IMG/VR virus record: IMGVR_UViG_3300020044_001984
Span: 1-29,404 of that record
Source of the DNA: a virus
Lineage: Duplodnaviria; Caudoviricetes
Length of the DNA: 29,404 nt
Strand: one strand, 5' to 3'
Position numbers and translations under genes: made by a program. Below are positions 9,213-26,624 of the stretch, piece by piece; position 1 is the stretch's first letter; the number at the start of each line of letters is the position of its first letter. The notes beneath the pieces are model-generated. The model did not search any database. It saw only the letters and a list, made by a program, of their open reading frames with translations, and was not told the DNA's origin.

Positions 9213-9887
9213 TTACTCATATTGAATGTTAATTGTACCAGCATCGAAGGTGTCGCCAGCAACTGTAGTAATCCGCAAACGATCCAATGCGCCACCAAGA
9301 GCGACAGACCCGCCACCAACAGCCACATAAGTAGCCCCAGCAGAATAACCTATAGCACTACTGCTAACCCATGTATTACCAGTTACAAGGTTAATTTGCA
9401 TAGAGCCATTACGAACTGAAGTTGCAGTCAAATTTGAATTAGTTGATTCTAAAGGAAAACCAGTTGTATTATTGATGGCCTGCAATCCAGCAGATGATGT
9501 AACCATAGCACCAGCGGCGTAACCAGTTGTTGTAAACGTGATTGATCCAATTTGTACTTGGATATTGCTTACACCATTTGTAGAAACTCCAGAAAAATTG
9601 ATGGTAATGCGCTTTACCCAAGACGGGATTCCCGTGAAATCAATGCTAGTTCCACTGGTTGATGCTTGTGCAGTTCCTTGAACAACAGGATACAACGCAC
9701 CAGTTGCGCCTGTTACAAGACCAGAAGCGGTGACTGTTCCAGCAGTGATGTTTCCCAATGAGCCTGTAAACGTGCTAGTTCCAGTCACAGTCAGATTGTT
9801 ACCGACCGTTGCATTGCCGCTGGTATCAAGCGTCAGATTGACTGTCGCCGATGATGGATTCTGAATAGTGTCAACCTTGAGGCCCAT
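9213..9887 (-). CDS. Tail fibre / receptor-binding cassette protein, paralog 3
   Basis: G/S/T-rich; STSGTSIDFTGIPSWVKRI...LDRLRITT...DTFDAGTINIQYE shared with the other two paralogs. Confidence 0.7.
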   Translation of the reverse strand: MGLKVDTIQNPSSATVNLTLDTSGNATVGNNLTVTGTSTFTGSLGNITAGTVTASGLVTGATGALYPVVQGTAQASTSGTSIDFTGIPSWVKRITINFSGVSTNGVSNIQVQIGSITFTTTGYAAGAMVTSSAGLQAINNTTGFPLESTNSNLTATSVRNGSMQINLVTGNTWVSSSAIGYSAGATYVAVGGGSVALGGALDRLRITTVAGDTFDAGTINIQYE

Positions 9888-9898
9888 GATAGAATCCC

Positions 9899-10546
9899 TT
9901 ATTCGTACATAATGTTGATTGAACCAGCGTCAAATGTGTCTGTACCGTTGACAGTGGTAATCCGAACACGGTCGAGAACTGCACCAAGCGTCACACCACC
10001 AGTAGACGGCGTTACCGATAGGGAGGAAGTCATCTGTAATATGCCTTGACTAACCCACACATTACTACCCAAAGTGGCTATTGTAATAAGACCATACCGA
10101 GTATTGGTGGCTGCAACGGCCTGATCAACAACAAGACCAGTTGTCGATGTTGCACCAGTTCCTGAATTATATGAAAAAGAAGCCGACGAATAGCCAGTTG
10201 TTGTAGGCCCAGATGAAGTTCCAAGTTGGATTTGGACAACAGATGTTCCGTTAGTTGAAACACCGCTAAACATCACAATAATTCGCTTTGCCCAAGATGG
10301 AATTCCAGTAAAATCAATGCTGGTACCACTGGTAGATGCAACAGCAGTGCCAGATACAATAGGATACAATGCGCCAGTTGTTCCAGTGACAAGACCAGAA
10401 CTGGTGATTGCGCCGCTGTTAATAGTTCCAGCCGTGATGTTTCCAATCGACCCAGTAAGCGTGGATGTTCCAGTAACACTAAGGTTACCAGTGTCCGTTA
10501 CGCCGGGGGCTGTGATGCCAGTAGTTCCGTCTAGCGTGATTGGCAT
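9899..10546 (-). CDS. Tail fibre / receptor-binding cassette protein, paralog 2
   Basis: Same C-terminal domain (GIPSWAKRI...DTFDAGSINIMYE). Confidence 0.7.
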   Translation of the reverse strand: MPITLDGTTGITAPGVTDTGNLSVTGTSTLTGSIGNITAGTINSGAITSSGLVTGTTGALYPIVSGTAVASTSGTSIDFTGIPSWAKRIIVMFSGVSTNGTSVVQIQLGTSSGPTTTGYSSASFSYNSGTGATSTTGLVVDQAVAATNTRYGLITIATLGSNVWVSQGILQMTSSLSVTPSTGGVTLGAVLDRVRITTVNGTDTFDAGSINIMYE

Positions 10547-10692
10547 TATGCACCTATCTCAGTTTGAGTATCAGCCGTCTGTTGTTCAGCAAGCCATGCA
10601 GCATATTGTGCTTCAGCCGCAGCAACTTCTTCAGCAGTCAACTGAATGATCTGGACTTCACCTGTTTGGCAATTAACTTCAATGCGTTCCAT
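10546..10692 (-). CDS. Small acidic protein, possible fibre assembly partner (48 aa; not in the track)
   Basis: MERIEVNCQTGEVQIIQLTAEEVAAAEAQYAAWLAEQQTADTQTEIGA; AGGTG RBS; TAATG coupling to the next gene. Confidence 0.7.
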   Translation of the reverse strand: MERIEVNCQTGEVQIIQLTAEEVAAAEAQYAAWLAEQQTADTQTEIGA

Positions 10693-10700
10693 GCGTCACC

Positions 10701-11381
10701 TTATTCGTACATGATGTTGATGGAGCCAGCGTCAAAGGTGTCTGTGCCGTTAACTGTAGTTAAAACGACACGGTCCAATGCACCACTAAGAGTAGGAGAA
10801 GAACCACCTCCTCCGTTAAAAGTTGTAGTCCCTTGTGTTCCAGACCAACTAAAAACCCAAATATTTGACCCCAATAAAGTTATTGTTACGATACCGCTAT
10901 AAGCACTTGAAAGTGACGATGAACCAGATAGCGTCATACCAGAAGTTGCAGCAGCTACAGAAGAAGCCGCACCATTGCTTGCATATCCTGCGCTGCACGA
11001 ATAACCGCTAGTAGATACAGAACCTGCACCAATTTGAATTTGTGGAATAGATGATCCGTTTGTGGATACCCCATTTAACATTACAGTAATACGTTTTACC
11101 CAAGAAGGGATAGACGAAAACGTAATGCTTGTCCCGCTGGTAGATGCAACAGCAGTTACAGACGTAAGAACGCTGCTTGCCATTGTAGAAACCACTGCGC
11201 CAGATATAGTCGGGCTAGTCACAGTTGGGCTAGTCAGCGTCTTATTGGTAAGCGTCTGAGAAGATACCAGATCAACCAGTGTGGAGTTGCCAGATGGGAG
11301 CGTGAGCGTATTGCTTGATGCAACAGCAGCAGCATCAATCTGCGTATAACCTGAAGTGGATCCGTTGAGTTTGATCGGCAT
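10701..11381 (-). CDS. Tail fibre / receptor-binding cassette protein, paralog 1
   Basis: IKLNGSTSGY...TLTLP...QTLTNKTLTSPT N-terminus plus the shared C-terminal domain. Confidence 0.7.
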   Translation of the reverse strand: MPIKLNGSTSGYTQIDAAAVASSNTLTLPSGNSTLVDLVSSQTLTNKTLTSPTVTSPTISGAVVSTMASSVLTSVTAVASTSGTSITFSSIPSWVKRITVMLNGVSTNGSSIPQIQIGAGSVSTSGYSCSAGYASNGAASSVAAATSGMTLSGSSSLSSAYSGIVTITLLGSNIWVFSWSGTQGTTTFNGGGGSSPTLSGALDRVVLTTVNGTDTFDAGSINIMYE

Positions 11382-22663: not shown

Positions 22664-22698
22664 AAGGGGAAAGAGTAGGGAGACTTCTCCCCCTACTC
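22664..22698 (-). terminator. Probable terminator/attenuator after capsid genes
   Basis: Minus strand GAGTAGGG(GG)AGA-AG-TCTCCCTACTC followed by TTTCCCCTT; position analogous to T7 T-phi. Confidence 0.6.
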
Positions 22699-22996: not shown

Positions 22997-23839
22997 TCAA
23001 GATTCGCGGCAGGTGATTTTGACGATACCTTCATCGTCAATGGCGACCGCACCAGCCGAGAACATGCTGTTCACAAGGAACGAAGTCTTTTCTGGAACGT
23101 AGTTGATCTCAGTCTTCTGAGCCATACCAATACCCATGCCGACTGCATCTTTATGGAAAGCGTAGCAAGTACGATCCAGAGAGCCGTCAATTGGCAGGCC
23201 GCCTTCAGCACGATCACCGAGGGTGATGAACTTGAAGCCGAGGAAGGTATCAATCGAACCCGACACCAGAGCCTGAACCGAGTTGTAGTCGGTCGAGGTG
23301 GTCTGGGTTTCGCCGAGCAGACCTTCGAGACCAGCCGCCGAGATGACCATCACACGGCCTTCAGCAGGCACATTGTACTGGTCGAGCAGCTTCTTAGCGC
23401 GGCGCAGTTTAGCCACGTTAAGGTTCGAGTCCGTTGCACCGATGTCATTCGAGACAGTCAGCGAGGTCGAGGAAGCGGCGAGAGCATCGAGGACCAACTG
23501 ATCCATACGGCGACCGATTGCGTTAGACACAACCTGTACCAGTTCACGGCGTTCATCGAAGTTCACTTTAGCCTGATGGAAGATGTCGCTATATTCAGCG
23601 GCATTGTAGTCAGACAAAGTAGCGGTAACCTGAGAATAGGTCACGTTCAGTGGGGTAACGTCAGACTGGGGGATACGGATCGTAGCCGAACCTTTACCAA
23701 TCTTTGGGAACTTAACGGTAGAACCTTCAACACCGTTGCGCTCGCGGACCAGACCAGCCAAGGCGCGTTGTGCCTGGAAAGCCTGTTTTACTTCCGCGTC
23801 GAACAGCGTAACAAAGGCGTTTGAGATGCCCTGAGCCAT
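22997..23839 (-). CDS. Major capsid protein
   Basis: FVTLFDAEVKQAFQ, GSTVKFPKIG, AIGRRMDQLVLDAL, G.IDTFLGFKF, EINYVPEK; strong AAGGAG RBS; after scaffold. Confidence 0.92.
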   Translation of the reverse strand: MAQGISNAFVTLFDAEVKQAFQAQRALAGLVRERNGVEGSTVKFPKIGKGSATIRIPQSDVTPLNVTYSQVTATLSDYNAAEYSDIFHQAKVNFDERRELVQVVSNAIGRRMDQLVLDALAASSTSLTVSNDIGATDSNLNVAKLRRAKKLLDQYNVPAEGRVMVISAAGLEGLLGETQTTSTDYNSVQALVSGSIDTFLGFKFITLGDRAEGGLPIDGSLDRTCYAFHKDAVGMGIGMAQKTEINYVPEKTSFLVNSMFSAGAVAIDDEGIVKITCRES

Positions 23840-23878
23840 CTGTATCTCCTTGAGTTGTTAATCGCTTTACGGTTAAAC

Positions 23879-23905
23879 GCCGAGGTTGTCCTAGTGGGCC
23901 GCGAC
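23879..23905 (-). promoter_or_regulatory. Capsid-leader RNA hairpin with C/ACAA internal loop (motif copy 3)
   Basis: mRNA GUCG-C-GG[C]CC(ACUA)GG[ACAA]CC-U-CGGC. Confidence 0.65.
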
Positions 23906-23932
23906 TTGAGTGTAAGGTCTCCACCTTTTATA

Positions 23933-23958
23933 CCCGGCTATCTAGGATAGTTATCAGG
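23933..23958 (-). promoter_or_regulatory. Capsid-leader RNA hairpin with AUAA/C internal loop (motif copy 2, flipped)
   Basis: mRNA CCUG[AUAA]CUAUC(CUA)GAUAG[C]CGGG. Confidence 0.6.
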
Positions 23959-23965
23959 CAGACAG

Positions 23966-23995
23966 AATATAATCCCATCTGCCTAATTTTGTCAA
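23966..23995 (-). promoter_or_regulatory. Putative sigma70-type capsid promoter overlapped by an inverted repeat
   Basis: TTGACA (23995-23990), 18 bp, TATATT (23971-23966). Inverted repeat AGGCAGAT...GTCTGCCT spans 23956-23984. Confidence 0.6.
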
Positions 23996-23996
23996 A

Positions 23997-24797
23997 TCAA
24001 CCGAATGCTTTCTGGAAAAGCGTCTCGACTTGGCGTGTATAGTTCTTGTCTTTACCGTACCGTTCGTCGCCGACCATTGCGTAGAGATCATCTTTGGACG
24101 GCATACCTTCAGACGCGGACACACCAGATGTTGGGATAGCCATTTCGCCAGATGCCTGACGGATCTTGTTCATAGCAGATACAAAATCAGCACTGGTCGA
24201 TGCACGGGCAATGGCATTGGTCTCTGCTTCACTCAACACAGAGCGAGACAGTTTGCCAAGCCACTGGTTATTGGCTTGAATAATGTCATTCGCGCGTGGA
24301 CCAAGTTTCTTAACCTCGGCCTCGCGGTTTACTTTAACATTGTCAAACGCTGCACCAGCTTCTTCCAGATAGATCTTGGCAAGTTCCTCAAATGATTCTT
24401 GAGAGATTCCAAGTTCTTTAGATTTGCTGACATACTTCTGAAGAAGGTCATCACCCTCTTCAACACCGATAGACTTAAAGACTTCCAGATCGTACTTACC
24501 ATCTGCTGGAGCCTTATGCTTGCCCTGCGACATCTTAGTCCGCAGTTCCTTATAAGCAGTTGCCAGCTTCTCAACATCTGGACCTTCCTTTTCGTCCCAA
24601 AACTGTTCTGGGAAAAAGTCTGGGCGCACCCATTCCTCTTCTTCAGTATCCGTAGTGTCCTCTGCGGTAGGCGCGTTAGGATCTACTTCTTTGTGGGAAA
24701 CAGTTACCTCATCAGGCTTTGCTTCCTCGGTAGTTGCCGTTAACAGGCTCTGGTTGTCGCTGTCATCAGCGGCCTGAGTTGTCTGTTCTTCTGTCAT
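23997..24797 (-). CDS. Capsid scaffolding protein
   Basis: Acidic N-terminus, RPDFFPEQFWD, LATAYKELRTKM, helical body; lies between portal and MCP. Confidence 0.85.
   Translation of the reverse strand: MTEEQTTQAADDSDNQSLLTATTEEAKPDEVTVSHKEVDPNAPTAEDTTDTEEEEWVRPDFFPEQFWDEKEGPDVEKLATAYKELRTKMSQGKHKAPADGKYDLEVFKSIGVEEGDDLLQKYVSKSKELGISQESFEELAKIYLEEAGAAFDNVKVNREAEVKKLGPRANDIIQANNQWLGKLSRSVLSEAETNAIARASTSADFVSAMNKIRQASGEMAIPTSGVSASEGMPSKDDLYAMVGDERYGKDKNYTRQVETLFQKAFG
24748..24778 (-). promoter_or_regulatory. RNA hairpin with C/ACAA internal loop in scaffold codons 7-17 (motif copy 1)
   Basis: mRNA CUC-A-GG[C]CGCUG(AUGA)CAGCG[ACAA]CC-A-GAG, beginning at nt +20 of the ORF. Confidence 0.65.
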
Positions 24798-25054
24798 TTA
24801 GTCCTCGCTCGTTTAATACGCTCTTCAATATTGCGGACAATCGAGTTCTGGCCTTCACGAGCAAACCCATGCGATGCTTCCTCGCCGGGATACCATGATG
24901 GCTGCTCAATTGTACGCGCTCGAAGGTCGGCAAGAACCCTGCGACCCTCATCAGATCCAAAGACGTGAGCGTACAATGCGTCCAGATCCGATTGCTTGTT
25001 GACCCCGCCGTCGATTGGCTGGGCAAAGTCGTTGATAACATCCCAATTGTTCAT
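24794..25054 (-). CDS. Bbp19-like protein
   Basis: Y..VF.SDEGRRVL.DL...F.REGQNSIV..I pattern; between portal and scaffold as in BPP-1. Confidence 0.8.
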   Translation of the reverse strand: MNNWDVINDFAQPIDGGVNKQSDLDALYAHVFGSDEGRRVLADLRARTIEQPSWYPGEEASHGFAREGQNSIVRNIEERIKRARTK

Positions 25055-25055
25055 G

Positions 25056-26624
25056 TTACATTGCTCCTTGTGGCGGCATCCCTTGTTCTGGAGCCTGACC
25101 TTGTTGCATTGCCTGTGCTTGCTGTGCGAGTTGCTGCATCTGCTGCATCATCATTTGTCGTTCTTCTGGTGAGGTGAGAAGAGAAGTAGGGACACCCAGA
25201 CGATTAGCAATAAAGTCAATAACCGCATCCTTTTTAAGAGCCAATTGAGCTTCTGGCCCCATCTGCCCAACGACTTGCATGAATTGCAGGACATCGTTTA
25301 CTTCATCCATGTTCTGCGCCTGAGCAAGTGGAGAGATTGGCACAACTTTTACTTCCTGACCGTTAACTTTCAACGGCATGTCAATCAAGCCTTGGTCATC
25401 CATGATAAACAGGACACGGTTGATGATTGGAATCATGGCTTCCGTAATCAAGCGACCAAATGCCGAGCCAAGGTTCTGACTCAACTCCTTCATGCGCTGC
25501 ACGATCTCGGTAGCCGACCGAGCAGACATGTTATCTGGCGGCAGACTGTCATCAAGCAGCGTCTTTTTGATGTTCATCCTCAGATCGGGGATGATGATGT
25601 TGCTGACATTGAAGTCTGCTGCACGAGGAAGAGGCTGGAGGCTAGGACCAGTTGGGCCACCGTTACGGGCCACAGGAATGATAGCACCAGGCTGGATACG
25701 GATGGTCTGAGGGTTAAGAACACCATCATCTGCCGCTGTATATACGCCAGCAATAGCCAGAGATGCGTTCTTCAGCACCAGTTCCAGCACCTTATTAAGC
25801 GTCTTGATGTCAGGCATGGCAGAAAGCAGAGGCCCACGACCGTAAACTTCACCAGAGACCTTCATGAATCGCGCAACGATCCAAGGACTGATCTTCATCG
25901 TGCGATAGACCAGTTCCTCTTTGCTCTTTTCGTGGATCACATGGTAGCAATACACGCCAAGATCCTTGTTATAGACCGTGGCCTCCAGCAGATTGATCTC
26001 GTCGGTAGGTTTACGCTGAATCTGATCCTTCAGCATCGCTGGAATCTTGGCATCAGTCCACTGGCGGTCGATAACCTCGCCTTTAATCCGTAGTTTACGG
26101 TAAACATTGTCTACCGAACCATGTGGACCTTCTTCCAGAGCCACAAGATACTGCGGCACTGGGGTAAAGCGGATAGGTGCGGTCTCATCGCCGGGCTGAA
26201 TCAGCATAACAGCAGTGCCGACAGCCAGATCCAGCAGGAACTCGGACATTGCCAGATCAAAATTGGTCTGCCGCATGATGTTGAACATGCGTTCAGTGTA
26301 GTTGTCTAATATAATCTGGACTTCTGAGGTGCGTTCAGTAGGGATAGCGGTCCCTGCTTGCAGTCTGCACCACACACGATATGGAGGGAACAGCCCTGAT
26401 TGAATCCTGTTCGCAAATCTCTGCGTAGAATCAATAGCAGTCGAGTCATAGACCTTCTGCATTTTATTCTGACCAGGCGTACCACCTTCATAATTGCCAT
26501 CATACAGGTTCCGCTGTGGGAGAGCATACTCATAGCACTCCTGATAGATTGCTCGCCATTCATCCTTGCGAGCATTAGCCAGCGTGGACCGCTTAATGAC
26601 TTCTTCAACCTTCATTCGTGCCAT
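25056..26624 (-). CDS. Portal (head-to-tail connector, T7 gp8-like)
   Basis: YDSTA, DLAVGTA, GEVYGRGP, PDIKTLN, SATEI..R, SPLAQAQ motifs; Q-rich tail. Confidence 0.95.
   Translation of the reverse strand: MARMKVEEVIKRSTLANARKDEWRAIYQECYEYALPQRNLYDGNYEGGTPGQNKMQKVYDSTAIDSTQRFANRIQSGLFPPYRVWCRLQAGTAIPTERTSEVQIILDNYTERMFNIMRQTNFDLAMSEFLLDLAVGTAVMLIQPGDETAPIRFTPVPQYLVALEEGPHGSVDNVYRKLRIKGEVIDRQWTDAKIPAMLKDQIQRKPTDEINLLEATVYNKDLGVYCYHVIHEKSKEELVYRTMKISPWIVARFMKVSGEVYGRGPLLSAMPDIKTLNKVLELVLKNASLAIAGVYTAADDGVLNPQTIRIQPGAIIPVARNGGPTGPSLQPLPRAADFNVSNIIIPDLRMNIKKTLLDDSLPPDNMSARSATEIVQRMKELSQNLGSAFGRLITEAMIPIINRVLFIMDDQGLIDMPLKVNGQEVKVVPISPLAQAQNMDEVNDVLQFMQVVGQMGPEAQLALKKDAVIDFIANRLGVPTSLLTSPEERQMMMQQMQQLAQQAQAMQQGQAPEQGMPPQGAM

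Follow-up and report, generated by a model that had tools for sequence, protein, structure and literature searches.

The closest described counterpart of the element considered here is the control of scaffolding protein synthesis in phage P22. According to the available text of PMC5529062, the P22 scaffold is autogenously down-regulated when coat protein is absent, and a passage of PMC2115188 cites Wyckoff and Casjens 1985 for post-transcriptional autoregulation of the scaffold, the product of gene 8. An earlier note on the DNA discussed below, made from its letters, had invoked this precedent, which that text of PMC5529062 confirms.

Other phage RNAs are also relevant to the comparison. Coat operators of the MS2 type extend across the start codon and rely on a terminal loop, while HK022 put has a fixed geometry. 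GP20 is a scaffold. The Rfam motifs GP20-a and GP20-b, together with six GP20 csRNAs, lie directly upstream of a head-assembly gene, and the paper on them (Fremin 2023, PMC10690425) lists the anonymous RNAs DNAVirus_231 and DNAVirus_5613 upstream of podovirus capsid genes.

The head-gene locus and its four internal loops

The window, by which we mean the whole 29,404-nt stretch that was analysed, is a podophage fragment whose head genes (portal, a Bbp19-like protein, a scaffold of the T7 gp9 family and the major capsid protein, MCP) are on the minus strand (Table 1). The names that the earlier note gave to the scaffold, Bbp19-like and MCP genes are borne out by PF05396, PF25181 and PF19821, respectively. 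In the sequence TAAATG, the stop codon of the Bbp19 gene overlaps the ATG of the scaffold gene. A terminator-like hairpin at 22679-22693 (minus strand), past the small gene 3' of the MCP gene, would bound the capsid transcript. Farther away, three tandem paralogous tail-fibre-like ORFs of 224, 215 and 226 aa (9213-11381, minus strand) have in common a C-terminal DFTGIPSW...TFDAG.INI.YE domain.

Table 1. Head genes, expression signals and RNA features of the locus (window coordinates)
Feature	Coordinates	Strand	Basis or detail
Portal	25056-26624	-	
Bbp19-like small protein	24794..25054	-	PF25181
Scaffold Shine-Dalgarno-like GAGGA, within Bbp19 3' end	24802..24806	-	sequence
Scaffolding protein, T7 gp9 family	23997..24797	-	PF05396, E 1.8e-21
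Scaffold-start double-loop hairpin, scaffold nt +11 to +56	24742..24787	-	MFE -12.7 kcal/mol, z -2.87
Outer loop (copy 4), GACAAC / GCC	24783-24778 / 24748-24746	-	refined loop and folding scan
Inner loop (copy 1), GCC / GACAAC	24773-24771 / 24758-24753	-	refined loop and folding scan
Predicted internal sigma-70 promoter, TTGACA-18-TATATT	23966..23995	-	11/12 consensus matches
16-pair hairpin over the -10 box	23953..23987	-	z -2.76
MCP leader hairpin A (copy 2)	23932..23959	-	fold alone, refined scan, covariation
Hairpin A loop, GAUAAC / GCC	23955-23950 / 23938-23936	-	
MCP leader hairpin B (copy 3), the most widespread copy	23879..23905	-	fold, scan, covariation
Hairpin B loop, GCC / GACAAC	23899-23897 / 23890-23885	-	
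MCP Shine-Dalgarno AAGGAG, AU-rich stretch before it	23846..23851	-	sequence
Major capsid protein (MCP)	22997..23839	-	PF19821, E 1.5e-77; phrog_3437

The earlier note had described three hairpins with one and the same asymmetric internal loop. All three are present on the minus (mRNA) strand at the positions it gave, and their drawn structures are reproduced exactly when each is folded alone. The count, however, is four, since the outer loop of the scaffold hairpin had been overlooked. This copy 4 is nested around copy 1 in the opposite polarity, so that the two make up a head-to-head double loop. The loop had been written as AYAA. It is indeed common to all copies but is broader, the core being 5'-G[AYAM]Y-3' opposite 5'-R[C]C-3', in which the Y-R pair covaries and alternates between C-G and U-A. 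Nor are all copies at translation starts as had been stated: this is true of the scaffold hairpin, whereas copies 2 and 3 are about 116 and about 60 nt 5' of the MCP ATG.

Taken singly, the three reported hairpins are unremarkable (z -2.27, -1.09 and +0.39). A lenient string pattern yields 15 matches as against 9.0 +/- 3.2 in 200 shuffles, which is not significant within the window. With the refined loop definition and a folding criterion, both set after relatives had been seen, the whole window contains exactly four matches, all of them mRNA-sense and all at the scaffold start and in the MCP leader, while 60 shuffled windows average 0.2, with 2 as the highest count. The comparison with shuffled sequence that the earlier note had proposed therefore favours the refined loop but not the lenient pattern. 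The thermodynamic fold of the full leader omits hairpins A and B, so that the support for copies 2 and 3 is comparative.

A further hairpin is seen between A and B (23906-23931, minus strand) and also in the leaders of L019, L102-L105 and L010. It has a conserved CAAG end, its 5' side is often YGG, it is often GNRA-capped, and it is possibly a second conserved module.

Conservation, covariation and a change of loop class

Collection by MCP similarity gave 80 viral loci, of which 53 are non-redundant. In these 53 relatives the 200 nt before the MCP ATG contain 76 matches and the bin at the scaffold start 25, while each of the remaining 200-nt bins holds 0-4, as does the antisense strand; the positional conservation for which the earlier note had wished to scan relatives is thus evident. 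Likewise, of 109 loci selected by their proteins, 82 have the leader motif, as opposed to 17 of 489 coding windows. Blind scans of IMG/VR, made with tetraloop-capped forms, lead to the same place. With the B form, the matches in 49 of 66 non-redundant long loci lie ahead of an MCP gene (60 of the 66 had a downstream ORF and were scanned, six had none, and 27 short loci were omitted). With the A form, 56 of 66 loci are in MCP leaders, among the first 80 of 120 loci and with the MCPs judged by a profile built in this analysis.

The stems covary, a point that the earlier note had proposed to test. In sequence-only alignments of 52 leaders, 90% of the cells of hairpin B are paired and there are 64 double changes versus 18.7 when shuffled; for hairpin A the values are 79% and 57 versus 20.6, these shuffle controls ignoring relatedness. 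The four core pairs of hairpin B are intact in 52/52 leaders. A covariance model built from the 52 hairpin-B regions recovers the leaders of MEP301 (E 4e-4) and CKB-S2 (E 2e-4), on which it was not trained. In the 16 sources searched, it recovers neither scaffold copies nor autographivirus leaders, probably because the flanks dominate the model. By pattern, hairpin B occurs in 8 of the 11 autographiviruses examined (HTVC134P, P-PSG-11-1, CRP-361, P-SCSP1, HTVC019P, SS120-1, DSL-LC07 and P-SSP7), with 12 such matches in 110 kb in all; it was not found in the remaining three, T7, gh-1 and 10RS305A. Two of these eight hairpins pass a stricter folding test, and the other six, with 3-4 inner pairs and short outer stems, are identified by pattern. 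The RNA element is thus widespread on head-gene messages, and on capsid messages it is carried by many aquatic phages related to T7, marine autographiviruses among them.

Several observations in more distant phages deserve mention. In prophage-like relatives from Alphaproteobacteria (Dongia and others; L115-L136, L140, L150 and L161), hairpin A of the MCP leader is followed by a longer, different and conserved multi-hairpin leader that ends in GGGCAACC. Loop variants include GAAAAC in L085 (Hodr), GAUUAC/GUC in L083 (Vibrio 1.254.O) and GAGAAU in L091. One pattern match (L183:1895-3067) precedes an MCP of the SU10 type (phrog_1328, PF17236), outside the T7-like MCP families.

The scaffold copy has a more restricted distribution. 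It is present in 46 of 68 close relatives, where the first loop starts at nt +7 to +28, while 21 of the 68 have a leader loop without it; in distant loci there are 8 lenient scaffold matches out of 39, few of them convincing. This indicates that autoregulation is not the universal purpose of the element and, because the scaffold copy is limited to certain clades, that its near-universal site is the MCP leader. Where the scaffold copy does occur, it sits in the poorly conserved acidic N-terminus and in various reading frames and nesting orders: A is outside B in this phage and in L023, L037 and L055, B is outside A in L012, L015 and L016, and B stands alone in a large clade. A consensus fold of 11 close relatives retains both loops and has three compensatory pairs, although the invariance of its 5' strand is partly built in because that strand was selected by pattern. 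In the clade that has one scaffold loop, this loop directly encloses a conserved 3x3 internal loop, GAA/GAC, at scaffold nt +25 to +55 (L010, L025, L063 and relatives).

The scaffold copy also fixes synonymous codons. Of 57 scaffolds, 25 were chosen solely for having the peptide DNQ. In these 25, GCC encodes the upstream Ala in 22 (background 20%) and AAC encodes the Asn in 22 (background 44%), and ACC is the pairing partner in the three that have AAT.

The loops fall into an A class and a C class, the latter with CAUA, CUUA, CACA and CUCA in leaders and CCUA and CUUA in scaffold genes (11 loci including MEP301). When leader and scaffold loops are compared across the 68 loci, 35 are A/A, 11 are C/C and none is discordant. 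The C-class loci form one clade with a support of 0.999 (nine are in the tree; two were dropped because of a truncated MCP), and loop class follows the phage tree. L074, with CUAA and no scaffold copy, is a separate case. The loops at three sites on two messages have therefore changed class together in a single event, which suggests that these sites have a trans-acting partner in common.

From these results it appears almost certain that the element is a real, selected RNA structure. The weak z-scores of the single hairpins and the frequency of the lenient pattern are what might be expected of chance, of conservation at the peptide level or of a DNA operator, yet such an origin is barely credible given the sense-only enrichment, the G-U and compensatory pairs, the synonymous constraint and the placement of scaffold copies in several reading frames. 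The earlier note's argument for an RNA rather than a DNA site is supported by the sense-strand enrichment, compensatory stems and synonymous-codon constraint, and also by the occurrence of both polarities and the concerted loop switch.

A structured RNA need not be read by a protein. The leader hairpins are often GNRA-capped and flank the conserved middle hairpin, and the unpaired A and C could engage in non-canonical pairing. Hence the element might be a self-folding tertiary module which, by helix docking or a twist like that of the C-loop, compacts the leader and slows its decay. We consider this distinctly improbable. The spacing between A and B varies from 32 to 78 nt, some leaders carry one copy only, and the nesting order flips between clades. 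Moreover, a concerted class change on two separate messages needs a shared partner.

Transcript context and the candidate reader

The predicted internal promoter is the sole sigma-70 site of its kind between 22500 and 27000 and, from its spacing, would start a transcript near 23959. It is close to consensus, and its position would put hairpin A at the 5' end of the predicted transcript. Among 54 relatives, 37 have their best -10 box 9-11 nt 5' of the loop G of hairpin A. The 16-pair hairpin over the -10 box is possible only in read-through RNA, where it would sequester the 5' arm of hairpin A; its geometry is kept in close relatives with different sequences. Promoter-embedding hairpins are also seen upstream of hairpin A in L014, L025, L055 and L063, and by a crude test a U-tailed terminator-like hairpin covers the -35 box in 17 of 54 relatives. 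Contigs from RNA runs end inside the leader in three of four runs (at 23908, 23916 and 23950, the last in adapter), and because these ends differ between runs, they indicate neither start nor strand.

The predicted 5'-terminal position of hairpin A would suit a host factor, such as a ribosomal protein, the 30S subunit, RNA polymerase (as with HK022 put) or a nuclease adaptor, that boosts or protects the capsid message. The absence of the motif from T7, gh-1 and 10RS305A is also compatible with this explanation, which we nevertheless regard as quite unlikely. The same A-class loop is found in phages of Vibrio, Pelagibacter, Ralstonia, Roseobacter-group and cyanobacterial hosts, while loop class tracks the phage tree. 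The copy within the scaffold coding region is also hard to explain as an enhancer. The presence of A-class loops in phages of such different hosts suggests that the partner is phage-encoded.

Tentatively, and at somewhat less than even chances, we take the loops to be the binding site by which unassembled scaffold of the T7 gp9 family would reduce its own translation to the benefit of capsid output and so balance the two. One reader would bind all four copies, probably as a dimer because the loops come in pairs of opposite polarity. The scaffold would do so through the helix around Y82 and E84 and the adjacent basic patch. When bound at its own message, at +11 to +56, it would stabilise the hairpin at the edge of the initiating ribosome and thereby reduce scaffold synthesis, as for P22. 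When bound in the MCP leader, outside the ribosome site, it would protect the message or be tethered near the nascent coat, and assembly would start there. As coat titrates the scaffold into procapsids, the RNA would be released.

The two sites differ in ways that bear on this scheme. The footprint of an initiating ribosome extends roughly from -20 to +15, and the scaffold hairpin begins at its edge. In 56 relatives, 33-59 nt separate the end of the leader loops from the MCP ATG. If the loops are enforced, the predicted accessibility of the MCP ribosome site goes from 0.45 to 0.49 (n 56; up in 29, down in 9) and that of the scaffold ribosome site from 0.635 to 0.630 (n 46). Direct occlusion of the MCP start is thus unlikely, since the loops are distant from it and accessibility barely shifts, which makes protection of the 5' end or tethering more plausible. 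The earlier note's proposal that a phage protein couples scaffold and capsid output remains the best reading, although such coupling would be limited to those clades with the scaffold copy (46/68).

Among the three readers which that note had named, scaffold, Bbp19-like protein and coat, the scaffold is the best candidate. A gp9-family scaffold accompanies 46 of 49 pattern-found MCP loci. The protein is strongly acidic overall, and its helix LATAYKEL (residues 78-85) adjoins the only basic patch. Two of the three scaffold columns diagnostic of the C clade, Y82W and E84D, are in this conserved helix. Y82-x-E84 is found in 47 of 67 A-class loci and W-x-D in 13 of 15 C-class loci, as compared with Y-x-E in 1 of 27 motif-less loci. 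Y-x-E and both loops are found together in the Vibrio phage CKB-S2, while in its relatives 1.254.O and 1.138.O the residues are H-x-E and a canonical loop is absent; T7, gh-1 and 10RS305A have neither the loop nor Y-x-E. However, 20 of the 67 A-class scaffolds are without Y-x-E, and L074 combines CUAA loops with Y-x-E. Because the C class is essentially one clade, the link between residues and loop class amounts to a single event; it is confounded by descent and should be taken as a lead only. PDB sequence searches with Bbp19 and scaffold gave nothing significant, and an atlas search returned Bbp19 clusters only.

A bolder form of the scaffold model, which we judge unlikely, would make the scaffold a sequence-specific RNA-binding protein across a large part of the T7 supergroup. 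A scaffold dimer would dock on the paired loops of the coat message and nucleate the procapsid co-translationally, while the same loop would shut off its own synthesis. Helix and loop would then have co-evolved (YxE with AYAM, WxD with CNYA) into natural orthogonal pairs.

An unlikely competitor is free coat protein, which would exert feedback through an operator in its leader and, in certain clades, would read the scaffold message as well. This fits the MCP leader being the near-universal site, and MCP is present in every case. It also has six columns diagnostic of the C clade, as compared with five in Bbp19 and three in the scaffold. In HMO-2011, whose coat is annotated as P22-like and whose gene in the scaffold position is not matched by the gp9 profile, the leaders contain the strings GCCUAC and GCUAC with GCC/CCC. 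The strings in both leaders resemble the C class by eye, but the loop is not among the MFE folds. A coat protein bound to leader loops so far from the ATG would leave the ribosome site uncovered, and repression of scaffold by coat would be expected to worsen a coat excess. In the P22 precedent, furthermore, the regulator is the scaffold (PMC5529062).

The Bbp19-like protein, whose gene is translationally coupled to that of the scaffold and which has an arginine-rich terminal helix, is a very doubtful reader. Its highly conserved core has invariant H, R, Q, N and R residues; a W and a G change in the C-class clade, and the EGQNS motif changes in L074. The W and G residues are not retained in distant A-class phages, however. 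Searches for a homologue were negative for two complete genomes, those of HTVC134P and P-PSG-11-1, and for two fragments (0/4, with CKB-S2 positive as a control), as they were around the head genes of six other autographiviruses that carry the motif. The earlier note's inclusion of Bbp19 is disfavoured by this lack of detection. As an observation in its own right, the protein has a strongly conserved QP.WYPG....HG..REGQNS core and no solved relative, and it is not named in any paper of the literature searched.

Comparison with known systems

The element appears to be uncatalogued. A comparison with Rfam, which the earlier note had proposed, gave no match over the element at E <= 5; one chance snoRNA match (E 0.61) lies elsewhere in the window. 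No description of the element was found in the literature searched, and a term search of the main text of Weinberg 2017, as available in PMC5737381, was empty. Part of the leader could be among the anonymous RNAs of Fremin 2023 or among those of Weinberg 2017.

The interest of the element lies in the matching of scaffold to coat and in the site at which a procapsid starts, for which there is one old example, P22, with no defined RNA site in the literature searched. Here there is a covarying target of six plus three bases in the cultured phages MEP301, CKB-S2, Greip and Baldr and, by pattern, also in P-SSP7, HTVC019P and CRP-361, and the natural switch in specificity allows a clean swap experiment. 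Control of this kind would bring a post-transcriptional layer to the building of heads in very abundant aquatic viruses, and small orthogonal switches of RNA and protein could be derived from it.

As regards the loop itself, the C-loop (RNA 3D Motif Atlas IL_73276.5) is also an asymmetric internal loop in a hairpin stem, and the last three bases of the present loop, Y-A-M, resemble C-A-A or C-A-C on the assumption that the first A forms a pair with the C across from it. In the C-loop, the long strand has three unpaired bases, of which the first is usually C, and two crossing non-Watson-Crick pairs make up triads; the near-identical string GACAAU*AC is among those that JAR3D and RMDetect both fail to accept (available portions of PMC4551918 and PMC9516175). 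Identity with the C-loop by sequence is rejected, because the present loop has four unpaired bases and, at the equivalent position, 55 of 89 A-class loops have U and 34 have C; in three dimensions it may nevertheless take a form like that of the C-loop.

Other comparisons concern location and geometry. The GP20 RNAs belong to other phage groups and hosts, unlike the present element, which occupies MCP leaders and part of the scaffold gene itself. The T7 gene 10 leader is likewise structured and opens a capsid transcript, but it is without the present loop, and the promoter here is sigma-70-like rather than one for a phage polymerase. As in the coat operators of RNA phages such as MS2, small loops are proposed to be read by a protein; in contrast to MS2 these are internal loops, and the leader copies are away from the start codon. 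The variable A-B spacing sets the element apart from HK022 put.

The resemblance to P22 is functional. A structured site is found near the scaffold start, a place suited to such control, and scaffold synthesis, which in P22 is tied to the state of assembly, is proposed to be so here. The scaffold, however, is not like P22 gp8 but of the T7 gp9 family, PF05396 being its only Pfam match, and unlike P22 there is a defined, covarying internal loop which is present twice in the coat leader, its more widespread site. The element is thus akin to the known operators of phage structural genes, in a new form, and its candidate reader is directly testable.
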